DNA of 64,000 bases from Squalus acanthias (taxonomy: Eukaryota): contig CM059438.1 in the NCBI GenBank assembly GCA_030390025.1, positions 80,104,001 to 80,168,000 of the forward strand. The letters are read 5' to 3'. Both the position numbers and the translations under genes were made by a program. Within the stretch, counting starts at the first letter, position 1; each line of letters begins with the position of its first letter. The notes under the pieces were generated by a model, which did not search any database, was not told the origin of the DNA, and saw only the letters and a program-made list of their open reading frames with translations. Positions 3,701 to 57,487 of this stretch are shown one piece after another.

Positions 3701-6700
3701 GATGTGAACAGTGATCTCAAGTCACACTATATCTACTGGAGAGTCCTCTGATATACCTGCATCAGTGAAGGGAAGCACCTTGCTGGATTCACTGTGTTGA
3801 GTGTTTTTGGATGTTGCAGCTGCAGCTATGTGTGCATGGTTACATGCTGGCACTGCATTGCTGCTGACACGAGGAGCCACATACTACTTCTGCATAATGC
3901 CACTGTCAGAGTGAATGTCCTCATAACACCCTACACGTCCTATAGTGGGCATATGTGTGTTCTCCAAACCCCTTCCTCAGAATTCCATCCATATATTCTC
4001 CAAGCATGCTGAAGCTGCCCACGATTGCGTGGTGCAAATTATCAATACCACATTGCACTGCCATAGGTATCAATTCAGCAGAGGCAAGTGTGGCTGCTCA
4101 TCAATGCACGTGTTGCGACTTGCAATCTTCAAACGTAGGGCCCAGATGGTCTAAATTCAGAGACAATGGAAGAGTCAGGCAGCCTGCAACTGCTCACATC
4201 TTGTCTTTTGCCCCTTCATAATCTGTGTCATGTGTTTCAAATGTTACAAGATGCTTGCATCGGAGCTGGTGCAAACGTAAGTGCAGAGAACTGCTGGGCA
4301 CTGCAGAGCACTGTGAAAAGAGCAGCGGGGTTATTATGAGTACTTACATTCACATCCATTTTGATGTTATATTCTCATTACATGAACTATTAAACACTTG
4401 TGCACAACTGGCCTGTATGGATACATTGATAAAAGAGGGGACATCATAGAATATAATAAATGCATTGGTCTGCATGTCTCTCCAACCTCATCAATCCCAA
4501 CACCTTCTAATACTTTTCTTCCTATTAAAACCAGAAACCTGATCTCGGGACGAGTTAAAGCTTTCTCCTGTAATCCCTGCTACTTGGTTCTCCTGTGTTT
4601 CATTAAAAAACGATAAGAGTGTGCGTTAAGGCAGGGTGAATAAGCAACATTCAATTCACTCATTCTGAATTGGTAAAAGATTGTCAATTCCGCACACATT
4701 TTTGCAAGTCATGTCCATTTCAGGCAGCATCATATCGCAGTTTTAATGTTTGATACTTTGCAGTCAAAAAGCTAGTCAATTACATCCACAGGAGAGCACC
4801 ATTCCGATACCTGTCTTTACAGTAACATTGAAACTTTATCTTTTTCTGCTTGTCCTGAAACGTATTGCCTACTTCCTAACAGGTCTGTTTACAACCAAGT
4901 TCACCTGGTCGCAGATGAGTTACCCAGATATTAAAGCAGTGACTATCCTGCAGCACGAATAAAGTTTCCCCATCTCCATCACACCCCATAACTGACTGAA
5001 GAAAACAATTAGCGATGAACTGGAAAGTTAGATCATAATGAAGTGTTAAAAGAGGTTTATATTAGGTGAGTCTGGAATGAGTGGTTTTCTGATGTTACTA
5101 ATATCAGACTCGTGTTTCACGATTTCAGTGGCAACAAAATAGCGAAAAGAATTTATTTTTTTATCAAACACGGAAATCTATGAACTAGCAAATTAAAAAG
5201 TAATAGCCTTGGCTATAATTTTTTTTAATTACTAGGTCTGTTTCGCTATTCATTTCCTAACTGATACCACACGCTTTTAATTCTGAATCAGCCAATCTGT
5301 TGGCTCGTTTGTACAATGAGGTTGTCGTTTTCCAACGCTCCACATTTTCGGTCACCTTTCTGTTACAGCCTTGGTTGAATAATAAAGTAAAAAGGCATTG
5401 CATGGCGACTTCTGTTTCTCAACAGGTGAAGTTCAAAAAAGTGCTTGCATTGATATGGCTCCTTAAATGTCTGAAAGCACTTCACACAACGAATTACTTT
5501 TTGAACTGGGCGGCGAATACGTTTTCTTCAATCAGACGCTGCAGTGAAGATGTGGTGGTCCCACGGGGCAGAAGTCGGGGTTATCACTTGCAACTTGTCT
5601 ATTGAGGTTAGGCTGCTGAGAATCCGCTGTACGCGGGTCTTACAGCTATCAACAACCCGACTAAACCATTTTCTTTTGTGTACCTCAGCAATATCACACC
5701 GTTCAATGTACTGTCAGCAAATCTAGCCAGATGACAAGACGATAGAAAGAGTTGTCAGCGTCATTCGGCAGCACACACAATTATACAACAGGCCTCAAAG
5801 TGTTGCCCCTTTTATTTGCACCAACGACACACAACATGTTCGTAATGCTGGGCAGAGTTCCGAAGTGTATTCTCATTTCTGTCACTTTTGAGTTCTAACA
5901 GAGCAGAGGAAGGAACTGCTGGCCTACTGTGTAAACGCTGCACGGTTTTATTAGTCGCCGGTTGTGTGCTCTCTGCTGTTACATTGTCTCTCCATCAAAT
6001 CTCCGGGGATTACCTTTTCTTGCAAGATGAGTCCGGGCATTCTCAGGCCAGTGTTCCCAGCAGGCACGAGTCCACCGCACAAAACTACAGCCACATCCAC
6101 AATGAGCACAAAAAAACACGCACAATTACCATTGCTTTCCAAGAGGTCAGCTTAAAGCAACATGACTGTAGTCTGCACACACACACAGATATATATTCTA
6201 TATTTTACTCAATGTTATGATGTTTCTCCTCGAATGTTATATTCTGACAGAATTCCATTTCATCCATAAAGGTTCCATTTATTTCATCCCGGTACGACAG
6301 CGTCTGCTTTTAGCCAACTTCCCTGTAGTTTGCGGGCTCAGTATTGAGAAAGGCAGCGGCTTAATTCAAACATCTGCCCGCTTTCTTTGCAAGCGTTCCC
6401 CAAACTACATGAAACCCTTCCCGTATGTGTCTATAGGCTGCTTTACACCGAGGAAGCCCCTTCTGTTCTATCTCAGCACCCACCCCACACAGCCCCCAGC
6501 TTCCAGGGTACAGCTTCGGTGTAAATAGGGAGCCACCTTGCACATCCCAGTGGGCCGTATTCAAAACCCTCTACCCTTCGAACTTCCTTCCATTACTCTT
6601 CACATGGAAGTTTTTTCCCCCATTATCGTATTACTGATGGGAAAAGTGAAAAAATGCAATATTCCAGCAACCCTGTAAAACTATTTACAATGTGAAGAAA

Positions 6701-41619: not shown

Positions 41620-42158
41620 TTTGTTGTTGTTGTTGTTGTTTTCACATCTTCACACTCCTCCCTTGGAGAATAGCCTGAAGTGGTGGAAGGACTTGCAGGC
41701 TGATTAACAGCCTGACAGGCCGTGATAAGGATGCTCCTTCCATGTCTGTAATTTTATACCAGCCGATGGAGTGGTTAGTCCTATATGGCAGGAGGGTTTT
41801 ATGGGCTCCCACAACCCATATGATGGGGTAGGGGCCACCCAGACCCACCAGACATGTTTCCCACTGGATGTCAGCCCAGCATTCAGAGCCAGAGCTCCGG
41901 TTTCCCCAGGACTGTCTGGAGTGGGGTTTGAACCCAGCACCTTCTGACCAATACTCTCCCCGCCCCCCCCCCACCCCCAAGGTGCGCGGGCTCGTGGCCA
42001 CGCATCAATTGGGTGGTCCCGCACCGGCCGCTCACAAGCTGTTGCCGCTGGAAGATATCGCGCGTGCAAATTTAAAGGGACCGCGCCCGAAAAAAAAATA
42101 TTAGAGGGAACATTGCTTCTGACTCAGAGGCGAAAATGCTACCACTAAACCAAAGGTT
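41620..42158 (-). mobile_element. tRNA-headed SINE with a (CAA)n tail, interrupted by a nested insertion
   Basis: On the - strand: A box TGGTTTAGTGGTAGC (about 42138-42152), B box GGTTCAAACCC (about 41923-41934), a distinct body, and a (CAA)n tail at about 41621-41641. Confidence 0.7.
41949..42115. mobile_element. 167-bp hAT-like MITE with an 8-bp target-site duplication CTTCTGAC
   Basis: CTTCTGAC at 41941-41948 and 42116-42123. Ends CAATACTCTCC and GAGGGAACATTG form an imperfect TIR. Confidence 0.7.
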
Positions 42159-43918: not shown

Positions 43919-44360
43919 AATGTCGAGGCTCAGGCATGAAACACATGGGTGAGGTGTTGAAGGGTAGCTTGTGCATTTGGGAACGTACCCAGGCATGAGA
44001 GGAGGGGAGGAAAATTAGACAGCCGCAATCATTGTGATACCTTTTACGCAATTATTTGGTTTTAATTTCATTTAATTTGCAACAAACTCTAAACTCTAAA
44101 TCAGTCCATTCTTTTCATTTCAGAAACATTCTCATTGAATTCTGTTCAGCGTAACGTTTGTTAAATCAGACGTGTGTCCAAAGACAAAGCTAATCACAAA
44201 CCAAATACATTTTTAAGCAAACAGTGGGACTTTAAATGAGTCAATGATACAAAGAACAAAGTTTTTATTAAATCAGCAGTGGAATATATTTTTAGGCAGT
44301 AATCACATTTATTCAAAATTTCTTCTTAAATTTACAGTATATCTTCATAATATTTTGTAG

Positions 44361-44566
44361 CGTTAAGTTGTAATGAAAATGACGGTGACCACATGGACAG
44401 AGAGCAGCAGTATCCTCCCACTCAGAAGACAAAGCGCATGCGCACCTCTTTCAAACACCACCAGCTGAGGACCATGAAGTCTTATTTTGCCATTAACCAC
44501 AATCCTGATGCCAAGGACCTGAAACAGCTAGCACAGAAGACGGGGCTTACAAAGCGAGTTCTGCAG
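44361..44566 (+). CDS. lhx2: Lhx2 coding exon 4 (homeodomain up to the start of helix 3)
   Basis: Acceptor TTTTGTAG| and donor CAG|GTAAGA. Encodes ALSCNENDGDHMDREQQYPPTQKTKRMRTSFKHHQLRTMKSYFAINHNPDAKDLKQLAQKTGLTKRVLQ; 206 nt, ends phase 0. Confidence 0.97.
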
Positions 44567-44769
44567 GTAAGAGACCTCTATTGAGTTACTGTTCAAATTC
44601 TGTTTCTCAGGCAATCTGTCCTTTTTTATTCTCCCAGTTTCACTGGTTTTTAGAATAATAATTACATTTACAGGTATATTTAAACTAACATGACCTCACA
44701 TATGTAACAGTTTTTTGGAGCAAAAACGGTTAATTTGGTTCAACTTCTCAGCATATCTCTCAAACACAT

Positions 44770-44920
44770 CTCTATGCAGAGGTACATTTCATTGTCCTTT
44801 AGATCCATTTTTATTGCCCACTTCAGTGGCTGTCGCATGTTACCTATTCCACAAGTCTATTACCCTTTCAGTGAAAAAGTTCTGCCCGACTTCCCTTCTT
44901 ACTCCTAACTTCTTAATTTG
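44770..44920 (-). mobile_element. Highly decayed CR1 fragment
   Basis: CTATTCCACAAGTCTATTACCCTTTCAGTGAAAAAGTTCTGCC resembles the antisense CR1 motif near 39945-39990. Confidence 0.4.
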
Positions 44921-45059
44921 TTTTCTCTGGTATTCAAATCCTTTGCTAGAAGGAGCAATTATTACTTTTGCACGTAGGAGAGCTCATAAGCTCCTCAAAA
45001 TTATTCTGCAGCAATTCTGTTTGGTTCCTCCTACCATCCTGAAGACTCTGCGAGTGATT

Positions 45060-45400
45060 GCACTGCATGGTGTGGGACTGAGCCAAACAGACTGGGATTC
45101 GCAATCTGTGCTGTTTTCGCAGGGAGGGCAATAGGAGTGCTGCAAGTGGCACTGGTGGCCCCTGCACTAGGGTGTGGAAAAATCAGCCTGAGTTCCCACT
45201 CCTGATTGCTGTGTAGCAACTGCTGTTGGAGTGCATGTTGGGTGAGGAACAGGTGGATTGCAGCTGTGAGGTCCCCTATGGTCAAATAGCCTTCGAAGAC
45301 TCACTGTTTGGGTTCATCCATTAAGAATGGCAATCGTTGCCTGTGGCATCGAACCTCAACAAAAGTTGCTGCTCTTGGTAGATCGGGGATCTGGGTGGAA
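45060..45400 (+). repeat. Old interspersed repeat (SINE-like), copy 2
   Basis: GGAAAAATCAGCCTGAGTTCCCACTCCTG...GCTGTGAGGTCCCC...AAATAGCCT, colinear with the copy near 8010-8115. Confidence 0.55.
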
Positions 45401-45854
45401 AATTGGAGCAGGAAAAAATTCCATTTAACGTAAAAGCTATAACATTTTAAAAGAGCTGTACTATTCAATAATCTTTTCTTAAGTTTCTCACTTGTCTAAT
45501 GTGTATTTTAATTTGATACACTTTTGGGAGCTGCAATAAGTCCATGATTTCAGTGTGGAGGTGGGAGGTGGATGGTTTTAATGCACTACAGAGTGGGGCT
45601 GCTTTTGTGATACAATAATGACTTTGGCCAAACTGCTGGCAAAACCTCCTGGATTCTGGCCTGTAGCTCCCTCTGTGCTGTATAAAATACATGTAAAAGC
45701 ACAGTGCTGGTGTTTGACGTGAAATCTACCATAAAACTGCAGGTCTGTAAATAGGGAAGGTGGGGGGCGGGGGCGGGGGCGGTGAAAGGGTTGTGGGTGG
45801 TGGAGTGGTCAAACCCTGTTTTTTTTTTAGCCATTTGAGGATTCTAGGGGAAAC

Positions 45855-46150
45855 AAAAAAATCAGCCAACCAAATGGACCAGATAGGAAGGTCCCAGATT
45901 CAGTCCTTGCTTTGCGCTGACTTTGCTACTTACCTGGGACAGGGAGCCACTACGACTGACTTCAGCATCCTGGATTAGGGATTGGAATTACCATCCAGGG
46001 TTCCAACTCCTGCTAGCTATCCAAAGTAAAACCCATTTTTTTGGAAAGCCTGCGTATGGACCATGCCTATTGTCAGCAAACTCTTTCCAGTTGATCCTTT
46101 GAGGCACTCAGACTGCTGTCATTCCTGTCTTGGAACACGCCAACCAATGG
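45855..46150 (+). repeat. Old interspersed repeat (SINE-like), probable copy 3
   Basis: CCAGGGTTCCAACTCCTG motif with an upstream GGAAGGTCCCAGATTCAGTCC head-like segment. Confidence 0.4.
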
Positions 46151-46475
46151 TGTAAGTACAGGACAATTAATCGTGCAGGAAAGAGAAGTCAGAGGAGTGT
46201 GCAGGCAGCTTGTGCCACTTCCACTTGACATGGAGACTGGTGAACATCATAATATAGTCGCTTGCAACAAATAACCAATCTTAAATTATTCTCTTTTAAC
46301 TGTGAAATATTAAAAATTCTGTTAGAAGTGGGAAGTGCACAGAATAGAAACTTAGGAGGTAAACATTGGAACCAAATATTAAAGCTTAATCTACACCCAA
46401 ATTGCATAGGGAGATATAGTTGGACTTTATTTGAGGGGGGGGGGGATTCAAAGTATAAATCAATAAAGTGTGCCC

Positions 46476-46558
46476 AAGTCCTGGTCCAATATATTGAAGT
46501 CCTGGTCCAATATATTGAAGTCCTGGTCCAATATATTGATGTATTGGTGCAATATTCG
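46476..46558 (+). repeat. 21-bp tandem repeat (three perfect units plus one degenerate)
   Basis: (AAGTCCTGGTCCAATATATTG)x3 followed by ATGTATTGGTGCAATATTCG. Confidence 0.95.
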
Positions 46559-49005
46559 ACAGCCGTGGCTGTTTGTATTTAGCACCATGTGAGGCAAGCT
46601 ATGTCCCTTTCTCTATTTTTGCAATCGCTTCTGCTATTATTACACTGACCTGGTTACTGGCTGTTGTTCAGCTAATTGTTCTTTCCCATACTGTGTCTAT
46701 CTGTTTAATCAGTGTAAGCCAGTTTTGGTTGTCAGCAGTCTCTCCCTGGGAGCTAGTTTTAAATTGCTGTAGTTTTAACTATCCTCGGAAAAAAGAGCTG
46801 TGCTAAAAAGACGATCTCTGAGAAGTATGTTTTTTCTTATTAGAAGCTAAACCCAGTGCCTATAATAAAGCAAGCCCTCTTTCTTGATCTCTCTTGATTT
46901 AGTCACACTGTAAAAGACCAGAATGTTTAGACATTCCTGATCAATACCAAATAAAACACCTTTGCATTTACATTCTGAAATATAACATGATATTTAATGA
47001 GCTGAAACGATGGGATCCTGCAGCTTTGAATATCAATGTGTTTTTTCTAGGTATGCTCACTTGGTGATCTGTTTCCCCAAAAATGGGAGAGACATGTCCC
47101 TGTGCAGGAATAATGAGTTTACACAGTGATTCTCCCAGTTTTAGGAGAAACAAGCGCCCCACTGTCTAGGCAGGTATAACCCTGTAGGTGACAATGAGGC
47201 AGTGTTATTTAAAGCACCTCATTGGCACCTGATAAGCTGCTGTCACAACTGTAACAATAATGTCAGAGGTCTTTAAACTCATTATAAGTTTACTACCATC
47301 AAACACTGAAGCACTACTTTAATACCAAGCACATCTTCAAGGATTATTTTAATATGCGAAGCCCGACATATACACATTTTTTTTTTCTTGATTTGAAATG
47401 GGTTGCCTGAAAATCACAGAATTTAATATCCTTTATGTGACTTGCATGCTTAGTGTTGTTTTGTATGTGCGTGTGTGTTGTGAAGTTTAAATAGATCCGT
47501 ATCATTATAATTACACAGAGCACTGATCAATTGCTATGAAATGTAAAATGGTACTTACTTAGGGAGTTGCCTGTTAAAGGGGTTGTTCAGTGGTTCTTGT
47601 GCCAATGCGGCAGGATTTATTGTATCCCTGTTCCCTTTTCTGCTTGCAAAGTGCACTGTAGATGGAGCTGATGGACGTCTATTTCCAAAATGCCTCCAGT
47701 TCACCAATATCAGGAGATGCTGTAACATTTAGATTTAATCATTTTTTAATTTGAGACATATTCTTGAAGCAAAAATATTCTGCATCAGCAATTCTCTGGG
47801 GCCCAACTCTTCAAAATTTAATATCAATTTATTAGGCAGTGTGCCATGTACCAAATTAATTTGGCATAAGCCACAAATATATAATTCTTAGATGCTTTCC
47901 ACGCTTAGAGCAAAGTGATATTTTACAGAGTCGGGCTTCTGGTGACTCTGAAGTGCTGTGGTCATTGCACTTATTCAAAGATTGAAAAGGACAACCGGTT
48001 ACACATTTCACTTATGACAGAGACTTGTGAGGCCGTTGTTATCGTTTGTCACTGGATCGCATCGAACAACGTCTGTGGCAAACAGATAACTTTTAAAATA
48101 TCATATGGGATAATAAGTATATTTTATTATTTAGGTGTTCTGGCGAGGGATAAAAAAATTCTCTTTGTGAAGTCCTGTTTCAATAGGAATGGAAGGAGAT
48201 AACGGTACAGGCTGTCATTCTGGAGTTATTCTTCCTTTGGCTTTGATCTAAGTAACACTGTTTAAACAGAAATTAGCCATCAGATCAGTAGAAACTAAAT
48301 AGAAAATAAAATTAAATCAGATGGAAGCTTCGCGATACACTTATCATTGCTAAGGTTCGAGTGGTAAATAAAGTGGTCAGTAATAACACGGAAGAGTTAG
48401 ATACTGTAAGTTTGTAGAAAGTTGATCCCCATAGCTGTGAGACTGAAATCTTAGAGAAGGCTGAGGCAATGCAGGTCATTTTAATTAAATTTTGTAGCAC
48501 TTTGATTTATTACTTGGGTAACCAGCTTAAAGAGACACCGCTTCCTGAAGTAAATGTGTCACAGTAGTAGCTCGTGTTGCTTATGTTTTTTTTCCTTTTG
48601 GTAAAAAAAATGTTTGAATTTTCTTGGCACGCTTTGCAATCACTGAGTGACCCCTGTAATTGTTCAATTCCTTTAAACAGTTTTCTGTAGAAAAAAAACC
48701 CTCCTCTTCACAGAATCTAGAATTTTGTTGTTCTCCTTTACAAAATCGAATGAATGCATTTTGAGAATGTCCCTTAATTTGTTCTCCTTGTAAAAAAAAA
48801 TACAAGAAACTAATCAGAAGCATAATAAAAAAAAAGGGTGACAGTATTTCAAAATTTGAACATAGCTGATTAGAATCTTCAGAAGGATAGTATCTATATG
48901 ATATGTGACAGGTACAATATATTTTCTGTTGCGATCGTTTTACTTACTTTAAACTCTCTATATGGGTTCAAAACTGGTACAATATTACATCAAATTGGTT
49001 TGCAG

Positions 49006-49296
49006 GTTTGGTTCCAAAATGCAAGAGCAAAATTCAGGAGGAATCTTTTACGGCAGGAAAATGCAGGGGTTGATAAAGCATCTGATGGCACAGCACTTCA
49101 AGCAGCAACACCGTCTGGCCCAGCATCAGAAATTTCCAACGCCTCTCTTAGTCCTTCAAGCACTTCTACTACTTTAACTGACTTGACTAACCCTACTATG
49201 CCAACCGTGACGTCAGTTTTGACGTCTGTGCCTGGTAGCCTCGAGGCCCACGAATCCCGAAGCCCTACACAAACTACTCTCACAAACCTTTTCTGA
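49006..49296 (+). CDS. lhx2: Lhx2 coding exon 5 (recognition helix and C-terminus)
   Basis: Acceptor TTGGTTTGCAG|. Encodes VWFQNARAKFRRNLLRQEN...TPSGPASEISNASLSPSST...QTTLTNLF*, with TGA at 49294-49296. The C-terminal region matches Lhx2. Confidence 0.97.
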   Translation, partial: VWFQNARAKFRRNLLRQENAGVDKASDGTALQAATPSGPASEISNASLSPSSTSTTLTDLTNPTMPTVTSVLTSVPGSLEAHESRSPTQTTLTNLF

Positions 49297-49547
49297 GAAC
49301 TCTTTTACATGATTCCTATGGAGAAGAGGAAATTCTTAGTTTAATTATAACTGTATTTTTATTAGATGCTTTGTACAACTGACTAACAGCACTATGGATC
49401 TGTACTGAAAACTGAGGCAAGTCAATGTTCTGGAAAAAAAAAGTTTACAAGCTGCGGAGAACCTTTGCAGAGTTAACTTCGATGCCCTTTTGTGTAACTG
49501 TACAGTTTTGTGGACTGAACAAGGGAATGAAATCAAAAATCTGAACC

Positions 49548-49557
49548 ATTAAATAAA
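49548..49557 (+). terminator. Proximal polyadenylation signal candidate (overlapping ATTAAA and AATAAA)
   Basis: ATTAAATAAA about 250 nt downstream of the stop codon. Confidence 0.45.
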
Positions 49558-49603
49558 GTTGGCTAGGAATTATGTGTACTTCTAAGTTTTCAAAGACTGT
49601 CAT

Positions 49604-49611
49604 GTGCCTTA
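49604..49611 (+). promoter_or_regulatory. miR-124 8-mer seed site (GTGCCTTA) in the lhx2 3' UTR
   Basis: Exact 8-mer match about 310 nt after the stop codon; mouse Lhx2 is a known miR-124 target. Confidence 0.7.
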
Positions 49612-49747
49612 TACACTGTCTTATAAACACACAACGGACTGCATCTGCATTCAATTCAGATTTATGAGGTTGATTCTTGCCAGTTGTCTTTCTGCTACAT
49701 TGAAAGTTCAGAAACCTTTTAGAATGTCATAGTAAAAGGTCAGTTTC

Positions 49748-49753
49748 AATAAA
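49748..49753 (+). terminator. Distal polyadenylation signal candidate (AATAAA)
   Basis: Canonical hexamer about 450 nt downstream of the stop codon. Confidence 0.55.
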
Positions 49754-52700
49754 GTTGTGCTAAAGTTATATAAAAAAACAAAGAAAAGAACATTCTGGAC
49801 ATTGAAGGATTGCAGTTTGAGACTGAAGGTTAGGAAGAGTCTCCGTGTTTCGTATCACCCTTGAATTCAATTGGGGTAACTGTTATACCTCAGTGACCAC
49901 CGAGAGTTCAGGGGTCTTTAACGGTTGTTTGGAAAGGTAGCATTTGATTTTATTGGGCTCTTTCAAAATCAAACCTCCAGTCATTTCCTTTTGATGTTGA
50001 TCTTCTGTCCCACATACATTTGTTTTGCATTATTTAATACATTCAGCTCTGGGGATTGTTAAATAACTAACTTTAAAACACTACAAGGTGCCCAGTTTAG
50101 ATAACATAGCAGACCACAATGCTATCAGTGACAGTGTATTCTGAAGGTTCTTTCATGAGTCCAGTCTGTCTTTTGCCACAAGTGAAGGAATGTCAGTAAT
50201 GCATCATGTGTGATACAACACTGTTTCTTTTGGGGGTTACTCTATTTTAACTTTTCACACTTTCTGCAATTGGATTGTTAACTGGTGATTTGCGGCAGTG
50301 AATTCTCTCAACGCTGGGCGATGAAATTATCATTCAGACTCGCAACAGATAGTGATAAGAGTTTCTGAACAACTCCATATTCATGCTAAATGCTAGGGAG
50401 ACTGCGATTTGTTTGGTTCTTAGCAACAATGAACTTACTGGATTTAGTCTTTCAGTGGCATTAGTGTACAGTAAATAGATAGCTCACCCAATTTCAAATG
50501 GATGATTCCACTTATCATTAATTATATATAAAACAATTGAAAACAATCTTGTAATCTGTTTAAGAGGAAGGATAGCTACATGCAACTTATTGCATTAGTC
50601 TCAGTGAATCCGAGCCCTCATAAATCACCATGCTCTTTATTATGAAAAAGTATTGTTTGGTTTAGAGAATAAGGACTACAATGTGATAACTTTTATTTTT
50701 GCAGTTTTAAAAATATCATAGGATGTAATAACTGAATGTTACCAGCACCCACAAAGGAGAAATGAGAATTTAACATCTTGGAGTAGTAAATGCACTGTCT
50801 TTTGCCTATGACAGAAGGTATTCTATTTGTGTAAATTTCTGTTTCAGTTCAAAAACCTTACTACCAAACTTTGCTGATTAACTCTTTGCTGTACATCCAC
50901 TTTGGCAAATGATTCCGTCAAAAGGATTTTTTTTAACATGTAAAGCTCACAGAAGACCAATTTTACGTTTTATTGACCACTGCAAATTCCGTCGGTTGGG
51001 CTGGAGGGTACAATCTGGCGCGTGAAGCTGCACAGCGATTACTGTCTGTGCTGCTCCATGGTCAGCCAGCAGGAGGCAAGTTTCAGTGGAGAGAGCTGTC
51101 TGTTTTCCCCAAACTCTGAGACAGACCACCTTACTATTGCTCTGTGCTTTCCTGTTGACCCCCCCCCTCGCTCCAGGCGAGTTTGAGTGACAGGCCTCAA
51201 CTCCCTGTTGCCTAGTTGTGAATCTAGTGCTCAACTTTTTTGAGTTCCCAAGTCGTCTGAATGCCAACAATTTTATAACAAAAAGGTATTAATGAGATGT
51301 GATGCAAAATCAGGTGGTGAAAACGGTCGCTCATTTTGCAAAGTTGTTACATGAGTAACCTACAATATTCTTTCAGTTTGAGTGTTGAGTTGGGTAATAA
51401 TGAGCAAGAACGGCTGCTTGTGTTGGGGGCATCTGCCACACCAGTTATTATCTTGGAGAGGAAAAAGCTGAGTGCTAAGCCACTGGTGCAGTAGGAAGCT
51501 CAACATGTTCTAAATATATTAATTGGCATTGAATGAAAAGAAAAATTAGAGTGCAGTGTGATTTCAGTAAACCAGTGCTTTAAGAATGCAGTGTTAGTGT
51601 TTACTGGGATGGTAATCATTTCTCAGTGATCATTTTGCTGACGTATACAGATGTTTTAACAGCACACAGTTAACAAGAAAGTAGTTGAGACAAAAGACAC
51701 CAGGTTTGCATTGGATGCCCCAAGACATCAGAGGCCATGTTAAAGCTGTGTGTCTAACGTAGGAATAGCTCTGGACCGTGAAACAAGGATTTGGTTTGAA
51801 CAAAACTATCATTAAATACAATGAAGCCATACAATAATTCCTTTTTGGAGTATCTTAAATGCATGTCCAGGAAAATCTTACTGCCAATAGTTAAATAAAT
51901 GTACAACTTCAGCTTTTCATTTTAAATAGAGCTACAGATCACCTTATAGACCAGGGTAGTCTGATAACTGGTGGGATGTGGCTGCCACTGATCATGTGGC
52001 TCTGACGAACTTGGGGGCACACGACTGCTTTGATTTTGAATAATTAAAAATAATATTCGTTAAAATGAAAAGTACCAGAGTTATAAACAGAATATATAGT
52101 GGCAAATAATAGTTTATAAAGAAAATTCTAGTTAACAGTGTGGGTGTCTGAGATACCACATTGTGGAATATATATTTTTATTCTATGAGTGTGATTGGTA
52201 ATTTCACTGCCCAGGGCACTGTTACTTCACATGTGTAAAAATCCAACGTGCCATTTCCCATCCGTGAGATAACGGGCAGAAGCAGAACATTCATTTGAAG
52301 TCCCATTTACCTTTTTACCCACAAACATTGACTGTAGAACGAAGAGGCTGCTTGCCCCAGTGACATGAGTGGCAGGGGTTCACTCACTTGTTTTAAAGGC
52401 TGTCAGGAGTCAATAGCATCAGCAGCACTCGTAAGTTCTGGGTTTTTCACATTGGTGAACCAGCTGTCAGAATTCACCGTGGTGCAGCATGTAAAGTGTA
52501 CACTATAGGAATTCATGGTAAACTCAAGCTAATTTACTAACAATTGGCAGTGCACTGGGTAGCAGTATTTCATGATAAAAAAGGAAATTATGGATTGGTT
52601 AAACATGCACCAACTACAGAACGGATCAGATATTTACATTCTTTTTCCACATTCTTTAAAAAAAAACCCAAGGAAATAAATTTGAAGAAGCTGGATAAAG

Positions 52701-53326
52701 TAAAAATGAAAAATATTTCCTCTTCATGTTGAGGGAGGTGGAGGTATATTCAGAGCAGCAAGTTACACAAGAAACGTGATCAAGAAGAAGTTTATTAAGA
52801 GACTATGGAATTTCATGCATACACTTTCATGAACTTTGCTGACCCTTTTTATTGTTTTGATGCTGTGGTCTTGTCTGATTGTGAAAAGCACGCTGGCTTT
52901 GAATGCTGTACATTTTCTATTATACCAATTGTACTGTCCTGTACACATTCTTGTACAGTTGAATGTGATGTATTAAACAGTCTCCATTTTTGTTGATATG
53001 TATAAATTAGCATAAAGTAGTTCTAATTTTTAAAGTGTTTTCTTGCCAATGAATTTAATCTACAAATTCATGCAATTTATACAAAAAGGAAAGTGATGGG
53101 CATGTTTCCTACGGCAGAAAGGCACCCCCTGGCCACATGGCTAAAAGATTAAAGCTGCAAACCCTACACCGTGTGCGTGATATAATTAACAACCGAAAAA
53201 AGATGATAAATCCCATTCAATTAGAGTCAATGCATTCTTTCTTGAGATATGAAAGCTCTTAGGTTAAAGCAAAAGATTAGAAATTATTTAGGGGTTAACC
53301 AATTTGTAAATATGATTTTTTTGCAG

Positions 53327-53374
53327 GTAGAGCAAGTATTTGGGCCAATTGAGACTGCCATTCCCGAAGTTTGA
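53327..53374 (+). CDS. Candidate alternative terminal exon (Lhx9-alpha-like), VEQVFGPIETAIPEV*
   Basis: Branch-like GTTAAC near 53294, acceptor TTTTTTTGCAG| and phase 0 compatible with the exon 4 donor. The peptide start resembles the Lhx9-alpha tail GEQILG, and a shifted frame reads SRSLKCP (compare SRRLKIP). ATTAAA at 53520-53525. No transcript evidence. Confidence 0.55.
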   Translation, partial: VEQVFGPIETAIPEV

Positions 53375-56001
53375 AATGTCCTATCGTTAAAAGAATGAAA
53401 ATTATAAGACTGGAAACTAGGTGACTTCAAGACAGAGGTCATTTGAAAAGTGAGCTGCTTATATTAGTTTACTATATTGATGTTGAAAAAATGTGAAATG
53501 CTTGTTGGGCATTTTTTCAATTAAAAGAAAAGACTGATACAAAGATACAATACTTGCTCTTGCTGCAAAATAGAAGGTAAACAATGCTCCCAAATGGGAA
53601 ATGTGCTATCAAATAATAACCACAATGAATTCATGAATAATAATAAGATAGACTCTTTCACAGTCTTCTGCAGTTAGATCCAATCAACGGCATAATACAA
53701 TAAGCTACCTGTGACACAGCTCATCTATTGTTCGTTATCAAAGTACTGGAATATGCTTTTTTTCACTGCTTCTGAAAGATACCTGATTTTTAAATCTTTC
53801 CTCATTAAAACAGGTTCAATCGTGGATGCGGTAAATACACTCAGGCAGCTATTTGATTAATACATCAAAATCTTAGTACATGTTTATGATGGAAGAGTTC
53901 CTATTGTCTGAATTCATATGGCTTTAATATCTTTAGGTTCCTAGCTGCTTTGAAGAACTGACTAGAATCTTTGCACAACATTATTTATTACACTATTTTG
54001 AGAAAGCTCCGACGAGTCATGAAAGAAATGCATATAAGCTGGTCCCTTGATACTACAGTACAACACCGGCATAGATATCGATCTGACTTTAGTTAGCAAA
54101 AGCTTTTCTTAGTATGGCTGGAAACGGCGCTGTTAGATAAATTCTTCATTGTCTGTGTCTTGGTAGATATTAGATGAAGGGATAATTAATCTTTGCAGAT
54201 GCGCTGCTTTTTGCAAATTGACGTTTCCTCAATTGCTGTCTCTTCAGCTCTACCTTCACACACTCTCCTTCATCCAGGAGGGCAGTGCGCTCCAGGCTAT
54301 AGGTTTGCTCCGTGGCTTTAGCCAATGGACCTCCATGACTGCTATTAATGGCACTCTGCGATTAACCAACAGGAAATACATTTGCAAATGATATGCAGTG
54401 CTGCTTTCTTTCTCCCGTGAGGTGTAATGATTTATTATTATAAGCTGCTCTACCTATCAGTCTAGTCAAAACTATGTAATTTTAGGTGGTCTAAAGAGCC
54501 CAGTAGGACAGGCACTTGAACCCACAGCCAGCTGATTAATTCTTCGAGAGTTGAAGTAGCATTTTTGAACCAAAATCCAAATAAGAGAAGATAATGCTGG
54601 GCCAGTTAATGCAGGTTCTTAGTGTGCTAAAATCCAGAGCTGTGAAGCAATTGGGCATGGGTTTCCCCTTTGGCAGCCCCTCAACAGAGAGTCCTGCATC
54701 TGGCTGGTACCATCTCTAGAGGCGATCTATGACGGCAAGGTGCTTCCTCATAGGTAGTGATAATCTTAAGGCAAGTCAACTCTTCTGTAGCTCCTGACAG
54801 CTGGTTCCAATAGGGTCTGGCACATTGGGAACAGTTTACCTGCCCAGCTGCCCAGTTGGAGTAGCTGCATGGCACAGAGTAAACTGTGGAACCAGAAACC
54901 AAGAGAAAGTAAATATAGAAGAATACGAGAGATGTTGGTGGGGTGGCGGAAATAGGGCGGGAAAGAAAGACCAGGCAACAATTCAGAAACATTTTGTTTG
55001 TTTCTATAATTCCATTTCTGTAGTATTATTTTTGCAGTGGAAAACAGAGACGATTCTATTGTAGAGATTACACAACAATATAAAAGACGTGTATATTAAA
55101 CTTTCAAAAATCATTTAGTTTTCAAAAGGATCACATTTTTGTGATATTTAACCTTTTTGTGCTTAGATAATTTGAGCAAAATTATTGAAATTCTCTCGAA
55201 GAACTAGAATCTACAAGAAATGGAAAAAACCCAGAAATACCGACATTGTGTTTGCAGCACTTAAAAGTCTCATTTTACCGACAATATGAGACACTGTGGA
55301 CCAACACACACCTTTTAGGTATATTCTGCATAATATTCCAATGCGCTTCTGCTATCAGAGGTGTACACTTTGCTGATGTATACCTGATGGAAGTAGGCTC
55401 TATTTATAGCATCTAGCAAAAGACAGTAAAGCAGCATGAACGAACTGGGTAATTTAGTCTATTTAAACTGTTTAAAAAAAAAATTGAAATGCACATATAA
55501 ATTCCAGTGATACCTCACTTGAATGGTTATATTTTGGTTGTTATTTGACGTCTACTTTCCCCCCTTTCCCCCCGAATAGCCTTGAGCCCCATGTACCTGG
55601 ACTCTGAATAAAACTGTTACAGGTGGGGTTGGGCAGGGCGGGTTGACAGCAATGACTTTCATAACCTTTGTAGATATTGTTTTGTGCTCAGCTGAAAGTG
55701 GGGGAGAGAGGGGAGTAGCTGAATCCAACCTGAACTTGCTGATATTTCCCTTTCTTCCCTTTGCTCAAAAACACAGCTGAGATTAGTAACTTTCTATCTG
55801 GTAAACCCTTAGCACAAATAGAGGCCTTTGAGGACTTTGGACTGTAATGATCCTGCAACAAATCCACAACATAGCAAAATTACAATTGATTAACCCATTG
55901 AAAAAATCTCAAGAATTAAGTGTTTCATACTAATGTCCATTATTCTAATTTGATGTTAAATGTTTTGTAATGGATTACTAACAAAAGAAATACCCAGACA
56001 C

Positions 56002-57029: not shown

Positions 57030-57487
57030 TGTTAGCCGTGGCTCAGTGGTAGCACTCTCGCCTCTCAGTCAGAAGCATTCTGGTTCAAGTCCCACTCCAG
57101 AGTCCTCAACACATAATCTAGGCTGACACTCCAGTGCAGTACTGAGGGAGTGCTGCATTGATGGAGGCGCTGTCTTTTGGATGAGACGTTAACTGAGGCC
57201 CTGTCTACCCTCTCAGATGGACGTAAAAGATCTCATGGCACTATTTCAAATAAGAGCAGGGGAGTTCTCCCTCGCTAATATTCCTCAATCACCATCACTA
57301 ACAAACAGATTATCTGGTCATTATCACATTGCTGTTTGTGGGAGCTTGCTGTGCACAAATTGGCTGCCACGTTTCCTACATTACAACAGTGACTACACTT
57401 CAAAACAGAACTTCATTGGCCGCAAAGTGTGTTGGGACATCCTGTGGTTGTGAAAGCTGCTTGCTAAATGCAAGTCTTTCTTTCTTT
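57030..57487 (+). mobile_element. Full-length tRNA-headed SINE, Deu-domain (SacSINE1/AmnSINE-like) family
   Basis: Pol III A box TGGCTCAGTGG (57039) and B box GGTTCAAGTCC (57082); central GCAGTACTGAGGGAGTGCTGCA...GATGAGACGTTAA; tail AAATGCAAGTCTTTCTTT. The 3' half is shared with copies at 7688 and 63550. Family name recalled from consensus. Confidence 0.85.

Follow-up and report, generated by a model that had tools for sequence, protein, structure and literature searches.

An Lhx9-alpha-type last exon in lhx2 of Squalus acanthias, and candidate RNA arms over its splice acceptor

Introduction

The closest described counterpart of the locus studied here is the alternative ending of Lhx9 known as Lhx9-alpha or Lhx9ab (PMC9310833, PMC2447832). 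The Lhx9ab protein has a tissue-specific pattern in mouse and chick, and whether the full-length or the homeodomain-truncated Lhx9 is made follows a developmental pattern (PMC9310833). A 2022 paper termed this type of ending Lhx9-specific. In this study, we analyzed a 64,000-nucleotide (nt) stretch of DNA from Squalus acanthias (assembly GCA_030390025.1, contig CM059438.1, positions 80,104,001 to 80,168,000), hereafter the window, which carries the paralog lhx2 on its + strand. We found a last exon of this gene that resembles Lhx9-alpha in its place after exon 4 and in truncating the homeodomain before WFQN; its acceptor and exon sequence can be aligned with those of lhx9, but the alpha peptide is missing from lhx2. 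A sequence-only reading of the window had proposed that an element in intron 4 pairs over 4.5 kb with the acceptor of this exon and controls the choice of last exon.

RNA pairing over splice sites has been described in other genes. Acceptors can be blocked, or exons looped out, by pairs of conserved complementary regions (PCCRs); where such a region overlaps a pyrimidine tract, it also blocks the acceptor in 43.2% of cases, and FGFR1OP2 is reported as an example with its terminal exon looped out (PMC8052449). The lhx2 arms described below share with them complementary segments of about 20 nt over the pyrimidine tract and acceptor, but PCCRs are defined by conservation, whereas here conservation is shown for the lhx9 arm alone (two sequences) and the lhx2 arms are known from complementarity. 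Neither the text nor the five supplementary files of that paper mention an LHX gene, the full catalogue being outside the search. In Drosophila PGRP-LC (PMC6191721), the choice of 3' end is likewise linked to pairings that compete for a common sequence and exclude each other. In that gene, pairing between a docking site and its selectors activates the proximal acceptor; the shared lhx2 sequence is not such a docking site: it is the alpha acceptor itself, 8.7 kb from the common donor, and both arms would be predicted to mask it. BRD2 and BRD3 (PMC10789245) are also paralogs whose splicing is controlled by RNA structures at differing positions, but their poison exons arose independently, whereas the lhx2 and lhx9 exon is apparently shared by descent and the arms differ. 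Our literature search found no described Lhx2-alpha and no RNA structure at the Lhx9-alpha acceptor; the early Lhx9-alpha papers and the full PCCR catalogue lay outside that search, and the lhx9 arm may already be in the catalogue.

Results

An alpha-type last exon in lhx2

The LIM exons of lhx2 lie at about 29.7 and 32.6 kb of the window, and exon 3 has 93-98% identity to named shark and ray Lhx2 proteins. Coordinates of the downstream features are given in Table 1. A profile built from three lhx9 alpha exons matched 53311-53382 (nhmmer, E 2.8e-5), and the alpha region had a single match in its own genome. We compared the window with four of 23 listed runs, among them X13, a set of assembled contigs from another organism whose RNA nature is only guessed. 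The exon-4 donor is common to both last exons in these contigs: the GT..AG joint 44566>53327 has a depth of 5.4 versus 10.5 for 44566>49006, also GT..AG. One X13 contig thus has exon 4 joined directly to the alpha exon, with exon 5 left out, and the corresponding junction peptide is present in five RefSeq models. The alpha 3' untranslated region (UTR) is covered to at least 53900 in X13. Translation into the alpha exon after RVLQ removes the WFQN part of homeodomain helix 3.

The results showed that the alpha tail is retained outside Squalus. Among 39 newly listed shark and ray members of the Lhx2 cluster, five end in VEQVFGPIETAI[P/S]EV, a conserved tail of 15 residues across gene models of three sharks and two rays (Stegostoma, Cetorhinus, Heterodontus, Narcine and Pristis). 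The Lhx9-alpha peptide GEQI[LM]GHYS[QH]TSRRLKIP is not matched by the predicted lhx2 tail VEQVFGPIETAIPEV, in which only EQ and G align before the frameshift; the lhx9 alpha exon of the same genome reads GEQILGHYSHTSRRLKIP, close to the mouse tail (PMC9310833). The stretch TCCCGA-GTTTGAAA is kept between the lhx2 and lhx9 alpha exons although their reading frames differ, which hints at constraint at the RNA level. Homology, the joint and the RefSeq tails together bear out the proposal that an Lhx9-alpha-like exon starts at 53327. Judged from these comparisons, the exon is a true Lhx9-alpha-type last exon, homologous to that of lhx9, and its retention in shark and ray Lhx2 indicates that the alpha ending did not originate with Lhx9. 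Since sharks and rays keep it in Lhx2, the ending is likely older than the Lhx2/Lhx9 duplication and was probably lost from bony-vertebrate Lhx2. In bony lhx2, no alpha tail was found among 120 representatives or among 111 members of nine bony-vertebrate clusters (at most 15 members listed per cluster), a weak negative.

A metagenome scan, in which 80 of 240 loci were kept, provided four vertebrate-type loci, the other 76 being set aside: L009 and L010 are bony-vertebrate lhx2 loci, L011 is an lhx9 locus with a bird-type tail, and L012 is an lhx9 locus presumed to be of ray-finned-fish type. Pattern scans of genome and viral contigs yielded no further vertebrate loci. The lhx2 exon-5 acceptor in the window is identical to the lhx9 exon-5 acceptor over 12 nt, and both are pyrimidine-poor; in L009 and L010 this acceptor is T-rich instead.

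Two further observations concern the exon junctions. The alpha junction CAG/GTAGAG (53324-53332) resembles a 5' splice site and the exon-4 donor CAG/GTAAGAG, and the local stem described below would also cover it after splicing. At an internal exon-5 acceptor, 49057, exon 4 is joined as RVLQ/EN... in several shark and some bony-fish models; this joint removes 17 residues of the homeodomain end and is a second route to a truncated helix 3.

Table 1. Features of lhx2 and of its alpha acceptor, with the lhx9 upstream arm (window positions unless a locus is named)
Feature	Position	Strand	Basis and remarks
lhx2 exon 4	44361..44566	+	homeodomain helices 1-2 and start of helix 3; translation, X13 joints from 44566
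Second copy of the 11-mer TTGTTCTCCTT	48728..48738	+	51 nt upstream of the copy within the intron-4 element; read from sequence
Intron-4 element	48766..48798	+	antisense match to alpha acceptor and exon start; energy, identity, nhmmer
Small local hairpin, 6 base pairs	48787..48806	+	predicted to tie up the part of the element facing the AG; fold
Exon-5 acceptor	48994..49005	+	pyrimidine-poor; sequence comparison with lhx9
lhx2 exon 5, coding part, VWFQ... to stop	49006..49296	+	full homeodomain isoform; translation, joint 44566>49006 in X13
Candidate polyadenylation (polyA) signals 3' of exon 5	49548, 49748, 51811, 51894, 52043, 52675, 52972, 53148	+	sequence
Alpha-exon 3' splice site, pyrimidine tract and CAG	53311..53326	+	aligns with lhx9 alpha acceptor; GT..AG joint 44566>53327 in X13
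Predicted Lhx2-alpha last exon, coding part, VEQVFGPIETAIPEV to stop	53327..53374	+	frameshifted relative to the Lhx9-alpha tail; homology, joint, translation
Local stem, 5' arm	53319..53340	+	8 intron bases through AG, 2 unpaired exon bases, 12 exon bases
Local stem, 3' arm in the alpha 3' UTR	53549..53570	+	20/22 Watson-Crick pairs to 53319-53340, 208 nt apart
lhx9 upstream arm	L011 6945-6977; L012 3266-3297 (outside the window)		complementary to alpha exon start and CAG/GG

A predicted local stem over the alpha acceptor

We found that the alpha acceptor has a nearby complementary arm in the alpha 3' UTR, a stronger partner than the intron-4 element. In the whole window, no other ungapped inverted repeat with arms within about 1 kb reaches 20 of 22 Watson-Crick pairs. 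The resulting stem was reached by none of 400 shuffles when scored by identity and by 5 of 200 when scored by energy, and the fold of the region had a z score of -3.8. In the folding model, most pairs have a probability of 0.95-1.0 and the complementarity exceeds background; the two unpaired bases of the 5' arm are the first two of the alpha exon, and the enclosed sequence folds into several hairpins. Contigs of relatives (X13, X14 and X9) cover the 3' arm. Rfam covariance models gave no matches at E values up to 1 within 44000-56000.

Arms at the lhx9 alpha acceptor

In S. acanthias, lhx9 lies on another contig than lhx2. In the two bony lhx9 loci, an island 187-256 nt upstream of the alpha acceptor is identical at 17 of 19 positions between L011 and L012, versus 61 of 160 in the next stretch. 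This island holds an arm that pairs with the alpha exon over 18 base pairs in both loci, all 18 pairs being kept, with one double change from U-A to G-U between them; an extra CCCUG pairs with CAG/GG in both folds. None of 200 shuffles reached this arm in either locus. On sequence comparison and folding, it is the strongest structure candidate that we found. The lhx9 of S. acanthias itself has no such upstream arm (138/200 shuffles), and it has a weaker partner 750 nt downstream of the alpha acceptor (3/200 shuffles). At all four alpha acceptors, a partner within 1 kb was reached by at most 2.5% of shuffles, versus 2 of 12 other acceptors; the sites compared are related, not independent, and L011 and L012 were shuffled on the upstream side only. 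A 12-mer of the S. acanthias lhx9 matching the lhx2 alpha exon was rejected, being reached by 261 of 400 shuffles.

Two other structures were observed at lhx9. A second long helix lies between exon 5 and the alpha exon (L011 5648-5682 / 6135-6169, energy -38.5), with a counterpart in the S. acanthias genome (G000:C15, about 68198058-68198023 / 68197788-68197755, -32.0) that starts at AATAAA. The 5' arms align between L011 and S. acanthias; the helix is outside the top helices of the S. acanthias fold and was not seen in L012. In addition, a near-invariant intron block lies just upstream of the lhx9 alpha pyrimidine tract (L011 7100-7140, L012 3458-3495, and 60-25 nt upstream of the alpha acceptor in S. 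acanthias); it forms a hairpin in the folds of both bony loci and is not obvious in lhx2.

The intron-4 element and the 4.5-kb duplex

The pairing that had been proposed between 48777-48798 and 53316-53337 was recounted as claimed, with 17 Watson-Crick pairs, 4 G-U pairs and 1 mismatch, and its energy is -20.1 to -21.1 kcal/mol depending on the flanks. The minus-strand open reading frame at 48581-48823 does read FLQGEQIKGH, as had been noted; as a gene it was rejected, with two 1-nt deletions inside the frame in one X14 contig, from a relative. Although no segment in the 8.7 kb from the exon-4 donor to the acceptor pairs better with the acceptor 22-mer than the element does, the energy is not beyond chance: an equal partner appeared in 13 of 60 dinucleotide-shuffled versions of these 8.7 kb for the 22-mer and in 22 of 60 for a 30-mer. 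Among GC-matched 22-mers of the region (555 of 584 candidates run), 58 of 555 have a partner at least as strong. The looser complementarity that had been described across the exon (-36.7) was beaten by all 70 shuffles, in a test that is harsh because it permits large loops. The cis duplex is thus present but ordinary.

The same element fits the lhx9 alpha exon better. It forms 25 Watson-Crick pairs, 2 G-U pairs and 5 mismatches in 32 positions with lhx9 alpha, and its 11-nt core forms 11/11 Watson-Crick pairs with lhx9 alpha versus 8 Watson-Crick pairs, 2 G-U pairs and 1 mismatch to its own lhx2 exon; the pairing energies are -32.7 with lhx9 alpha and -26.3 with lhx2 alpha. For the lhx9 alpha probe, the element is the best partner within 32 kb of lhx2 (-33.1), stronger than the best within 20 kb of lhx9 itself (-27.4). 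Shuffled sequences matched this fit in 1 of 60 cases when scored by energy and in 2 of 400 when scored by identity. With the lhx9-alpha profile, the element was the top match after the alpha exons (E 0.013, composition bias 5.0 bits; 144 kb, both strands). We did not find it in the two bony-vertebrate lhx2 introns (L009, L010) or in lhx9 intron 4. In two relatives, contigs extend across both lhx2 arms and have 426 and 222 differing letters over about 6.7 kb.

Several other explanations of the element were considered and set aside. As a repeat copy it had a single match in its own genome, a weak result given that frequent words are passed over in that search. For homology with the lhx9 upstream arm, the ranks were inconsistent: against the L011 arm the element ranked 2-3 of 3192 windows by two lenient scorings and 226 by blastn scoring, and against L012 it ranked 105-1887. 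Pairing with the exon-5 acceptor 250 nt away (-20.5) was reached by 98 of 200 shuffles, with a fold z score of +0.41. On the sequence evidence, the element is likely an old antisense arm or else a chance match.

Other observations in the window

An inverted repeat of 28 nt (50314-50341 / 52187-52214, -39.7 kcal/mol; 23 of 28 matches, reached by 5 of 60 shuffles) encloses the candidate polyA signals at 51811, 51894 and 52043. Run X16 contains four CT..AC joints on the - strand within 44300-47721 (44527>45305, 44527>45934, 45390>47559 and 46128>47559), which read as spliced antisense RNA with two alternative middle exons, putatively overlapping lhx2 exon 4; the minus-strand donor at 47558 is GTAAGT. 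This run covers neither the intron-4 element nor the lhx2 arms. Within exon 2, at about 29890, a segment 155 nt downstream of the exon-2 acceptor (29734) is a strong partner of that acceptor (-32.1, 0/100 shuffles). An inverted pair of repeats that appear to be short interspersed elements (41915-42152 and 57039-57101, about 15 kb apart) flanks the region from exon 4 through the alpha exon, and another copy lies near lhx9. Positions 90-500 hold a fragment resembling what we take to be the reverse transcriptase of a long interspersed element. Ten Lhx2 elements have been described 219-619 kb upstream of the gene, none of them in intron 4 (PMC3100342).

Discussion

We give roughly even weight to the reading that lhx2 has two last exons, with an alpha acceptor hidden mainly by the local stem, which would damp alpha use, and an intron-4 element that is likely an older, weaker antisense arm. 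Under this model, the two-ending design may be older than the Lhx2/Lhx9 duplication and would have been lost from bony-vertebrate lhx2, where the exon-5 acceptor appears strong. A weak exon-5 acceptor would let part of the transcripts pass the exon-5 polyA signals, and the alpha acceptor would compete with this acceptor and its signals. The alpha acceptor would be open while about 220 nt are transcribed before the 3' arm is made and would be covered once the local stem forms, so that elongation rate or stem-opening proteins would set the ratio of alpha to exon 5. The intron-4 element is predicted to pair briefly or not at all. It fits the lhx9-type, presumably ancestral, exon and the local arm fits the present lhx2 sequence, suggesting that the local arm has replaced the element.

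Several results weigh against this reading. Even when the local arm is left out of the model, most of the pyrimidine tract is paired, with an unpaired probability of 0.06-0.20 at 53316-53323. The alpha contig, at half the depth of the one for exon 5, gives no hint of strong repression, though depth of this kind is a poor measure, and the short side of both X13 joints is 23 letters, below the 31-letter threshold. An ATTAAA at 53520 could direct cleavage inside or before the 3' arm. The shark and ray entries with alpha tails are RefSeq models. L009 and L010 stop before any alpha exon could appear, which limits the negative in bony lhx2. The double change in the lhx9 arm rests on two sequences, and its covariation is not significant (shuffle control 250/500). 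Finally, the end of exon 4 resembles that of the intron, so that splicing leaves 19 of the 20 local-stem pairs intact.

The strongest rival concerns the element. The exon may be real and the element an AT-rich pyrimidine look-alike of the antisense acceptor, locally repeated and without a pairing role; this is a serious possibility, although we incline against it, and it is compatible with the local-stem model. The two copies of its 11-mer 51 nt apart, the composition bias of the profile match and flanks that have no consistent homology to the lhx9 upstream arm all favor it, and the shuffle results with lhx9 alpha are modest for a post-hoc pick. On the other side, the element leads all matches after the alpha exons, sits antisense inside the alternatively spliced intron and fits the exon in the same three parts as do the arms of L011 and L012. 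On balance, we consider it rather probable that the match is not due to chance. The suggestion that the element is an ancient inverted copy of the exon is probably right as regards the exon start; no such element was found in the two bony lhx2 introns or lhx9 intron 4.

An unlikely alternative is that the local stem is real but works in the mature messenger RNA (mRNA), where it would close a folded part of the 3' UTR that spans the exon junction and stop codon and affect translation, stability or the choice of 3' end instead of splice choice. Its survival of splicing means that the stem may act there: the spliced RNA keeps 7 of the 8 junction pairs and all 12 exon pairs, the enclosed 208 nt form several hairpins, and the arm lies in the 3' UTR covered by the X13 contig. 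However, the lhx9 arm of L011 and L012 lies upstream of the acceptor and hence is absent from the spliced alpha mRNA, suggesting a role in pre-mRNA for such pairing.

We judged slightly less favorably a version of the original idea in which the element, on nascent RNA that does not yet include the local arm, pairs over 4.5 kb with the alpha acceptor and later competes with that arm in a two-arm switch of last exons. Besides the element's rank as best upstream partner of the acceptor, G-U pairs are left at two of the three core positions where lhx2 alpha departs from lhx9 alpha, and functional structures of like energy and span are known (PMC8052449). In a two-strand model, which takes no account of the loop cost, the long-range helix has a probability of about 0.9 for an RNA stopping at 53540 and of 0 for one extended to 53620. 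The local arm, when present, thus excludes the long-range helix, and the two helices on the acceptor are mutually exclusive in this model. By a rough estimate, a binding energy of -10 to -12 kcal/mol stands against a loop cost of about 13 kcal/mol. Moreover, the energy lies inside the shuffle range, the element is partly tied up in its own hairpin (unpaired probability 0.00-0.05 at 48787-48792 in the model), four wobbles are uncompensated, and the element was not found in L009, L010 or lhx9 intron 4. A duplex of this kind would block both outcomes, since exon 5 would be looped out while the alpha acceptor is masked. Of the proposed mechanism, what is supported is that the alpha acceptor is a likely target of RNA pairing; the 4.5-kb duplex as its controlling structure is not, given its ordinary energy, loop cost and displacement by the local arm, and it is unlikely to be the switch.

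Intronic RNA is scarce and short-lived, which counts against the very improbable alternative that lhx2 pre-mRNA or the excised intron pairs in trans with the lhx9 alpha acceptor and exon, replacing the upstream arm that S. acanthias lhx9 lacks: the element pairs more strongly with the lhx9 probe than any partner in lhx9 and Lhx2 and Lhx9 are co-expressed in newborn mouse dI1 neurons (PMC9310833), but the two genes are on different contigs, the better fit is equally explained by lhx9 retaining the ancestral sequence, and L009 and L010 have no such element. Equally far-fetched is the wider scheme in which an alpha exon older than the duplication would be governed in every lineage by antisense arms covering its acceptor, the lhx2 element of sharks acting in trans on lhx9 pre-mRNA, so that two paralogous transcription-factor genes would cross-regulate their splicing through direct RNA pairing.

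In the literature covered, we found no mechanism for the Lhx9 last-exon switch. The 18-base-pair arm upstream of the lhx9 alpha acceptor, common to the bird-type and ray-finned-fish-type loci, is a specific, mutable candidate for it. Examination of the proposed duplex thus led to a conserved Lhx2 isoform and to a testable Lhx9 arm. If differently placed arms do mask the same acceptor in both paralogs, this would mean that the regulatory structure turns over while its target stays.

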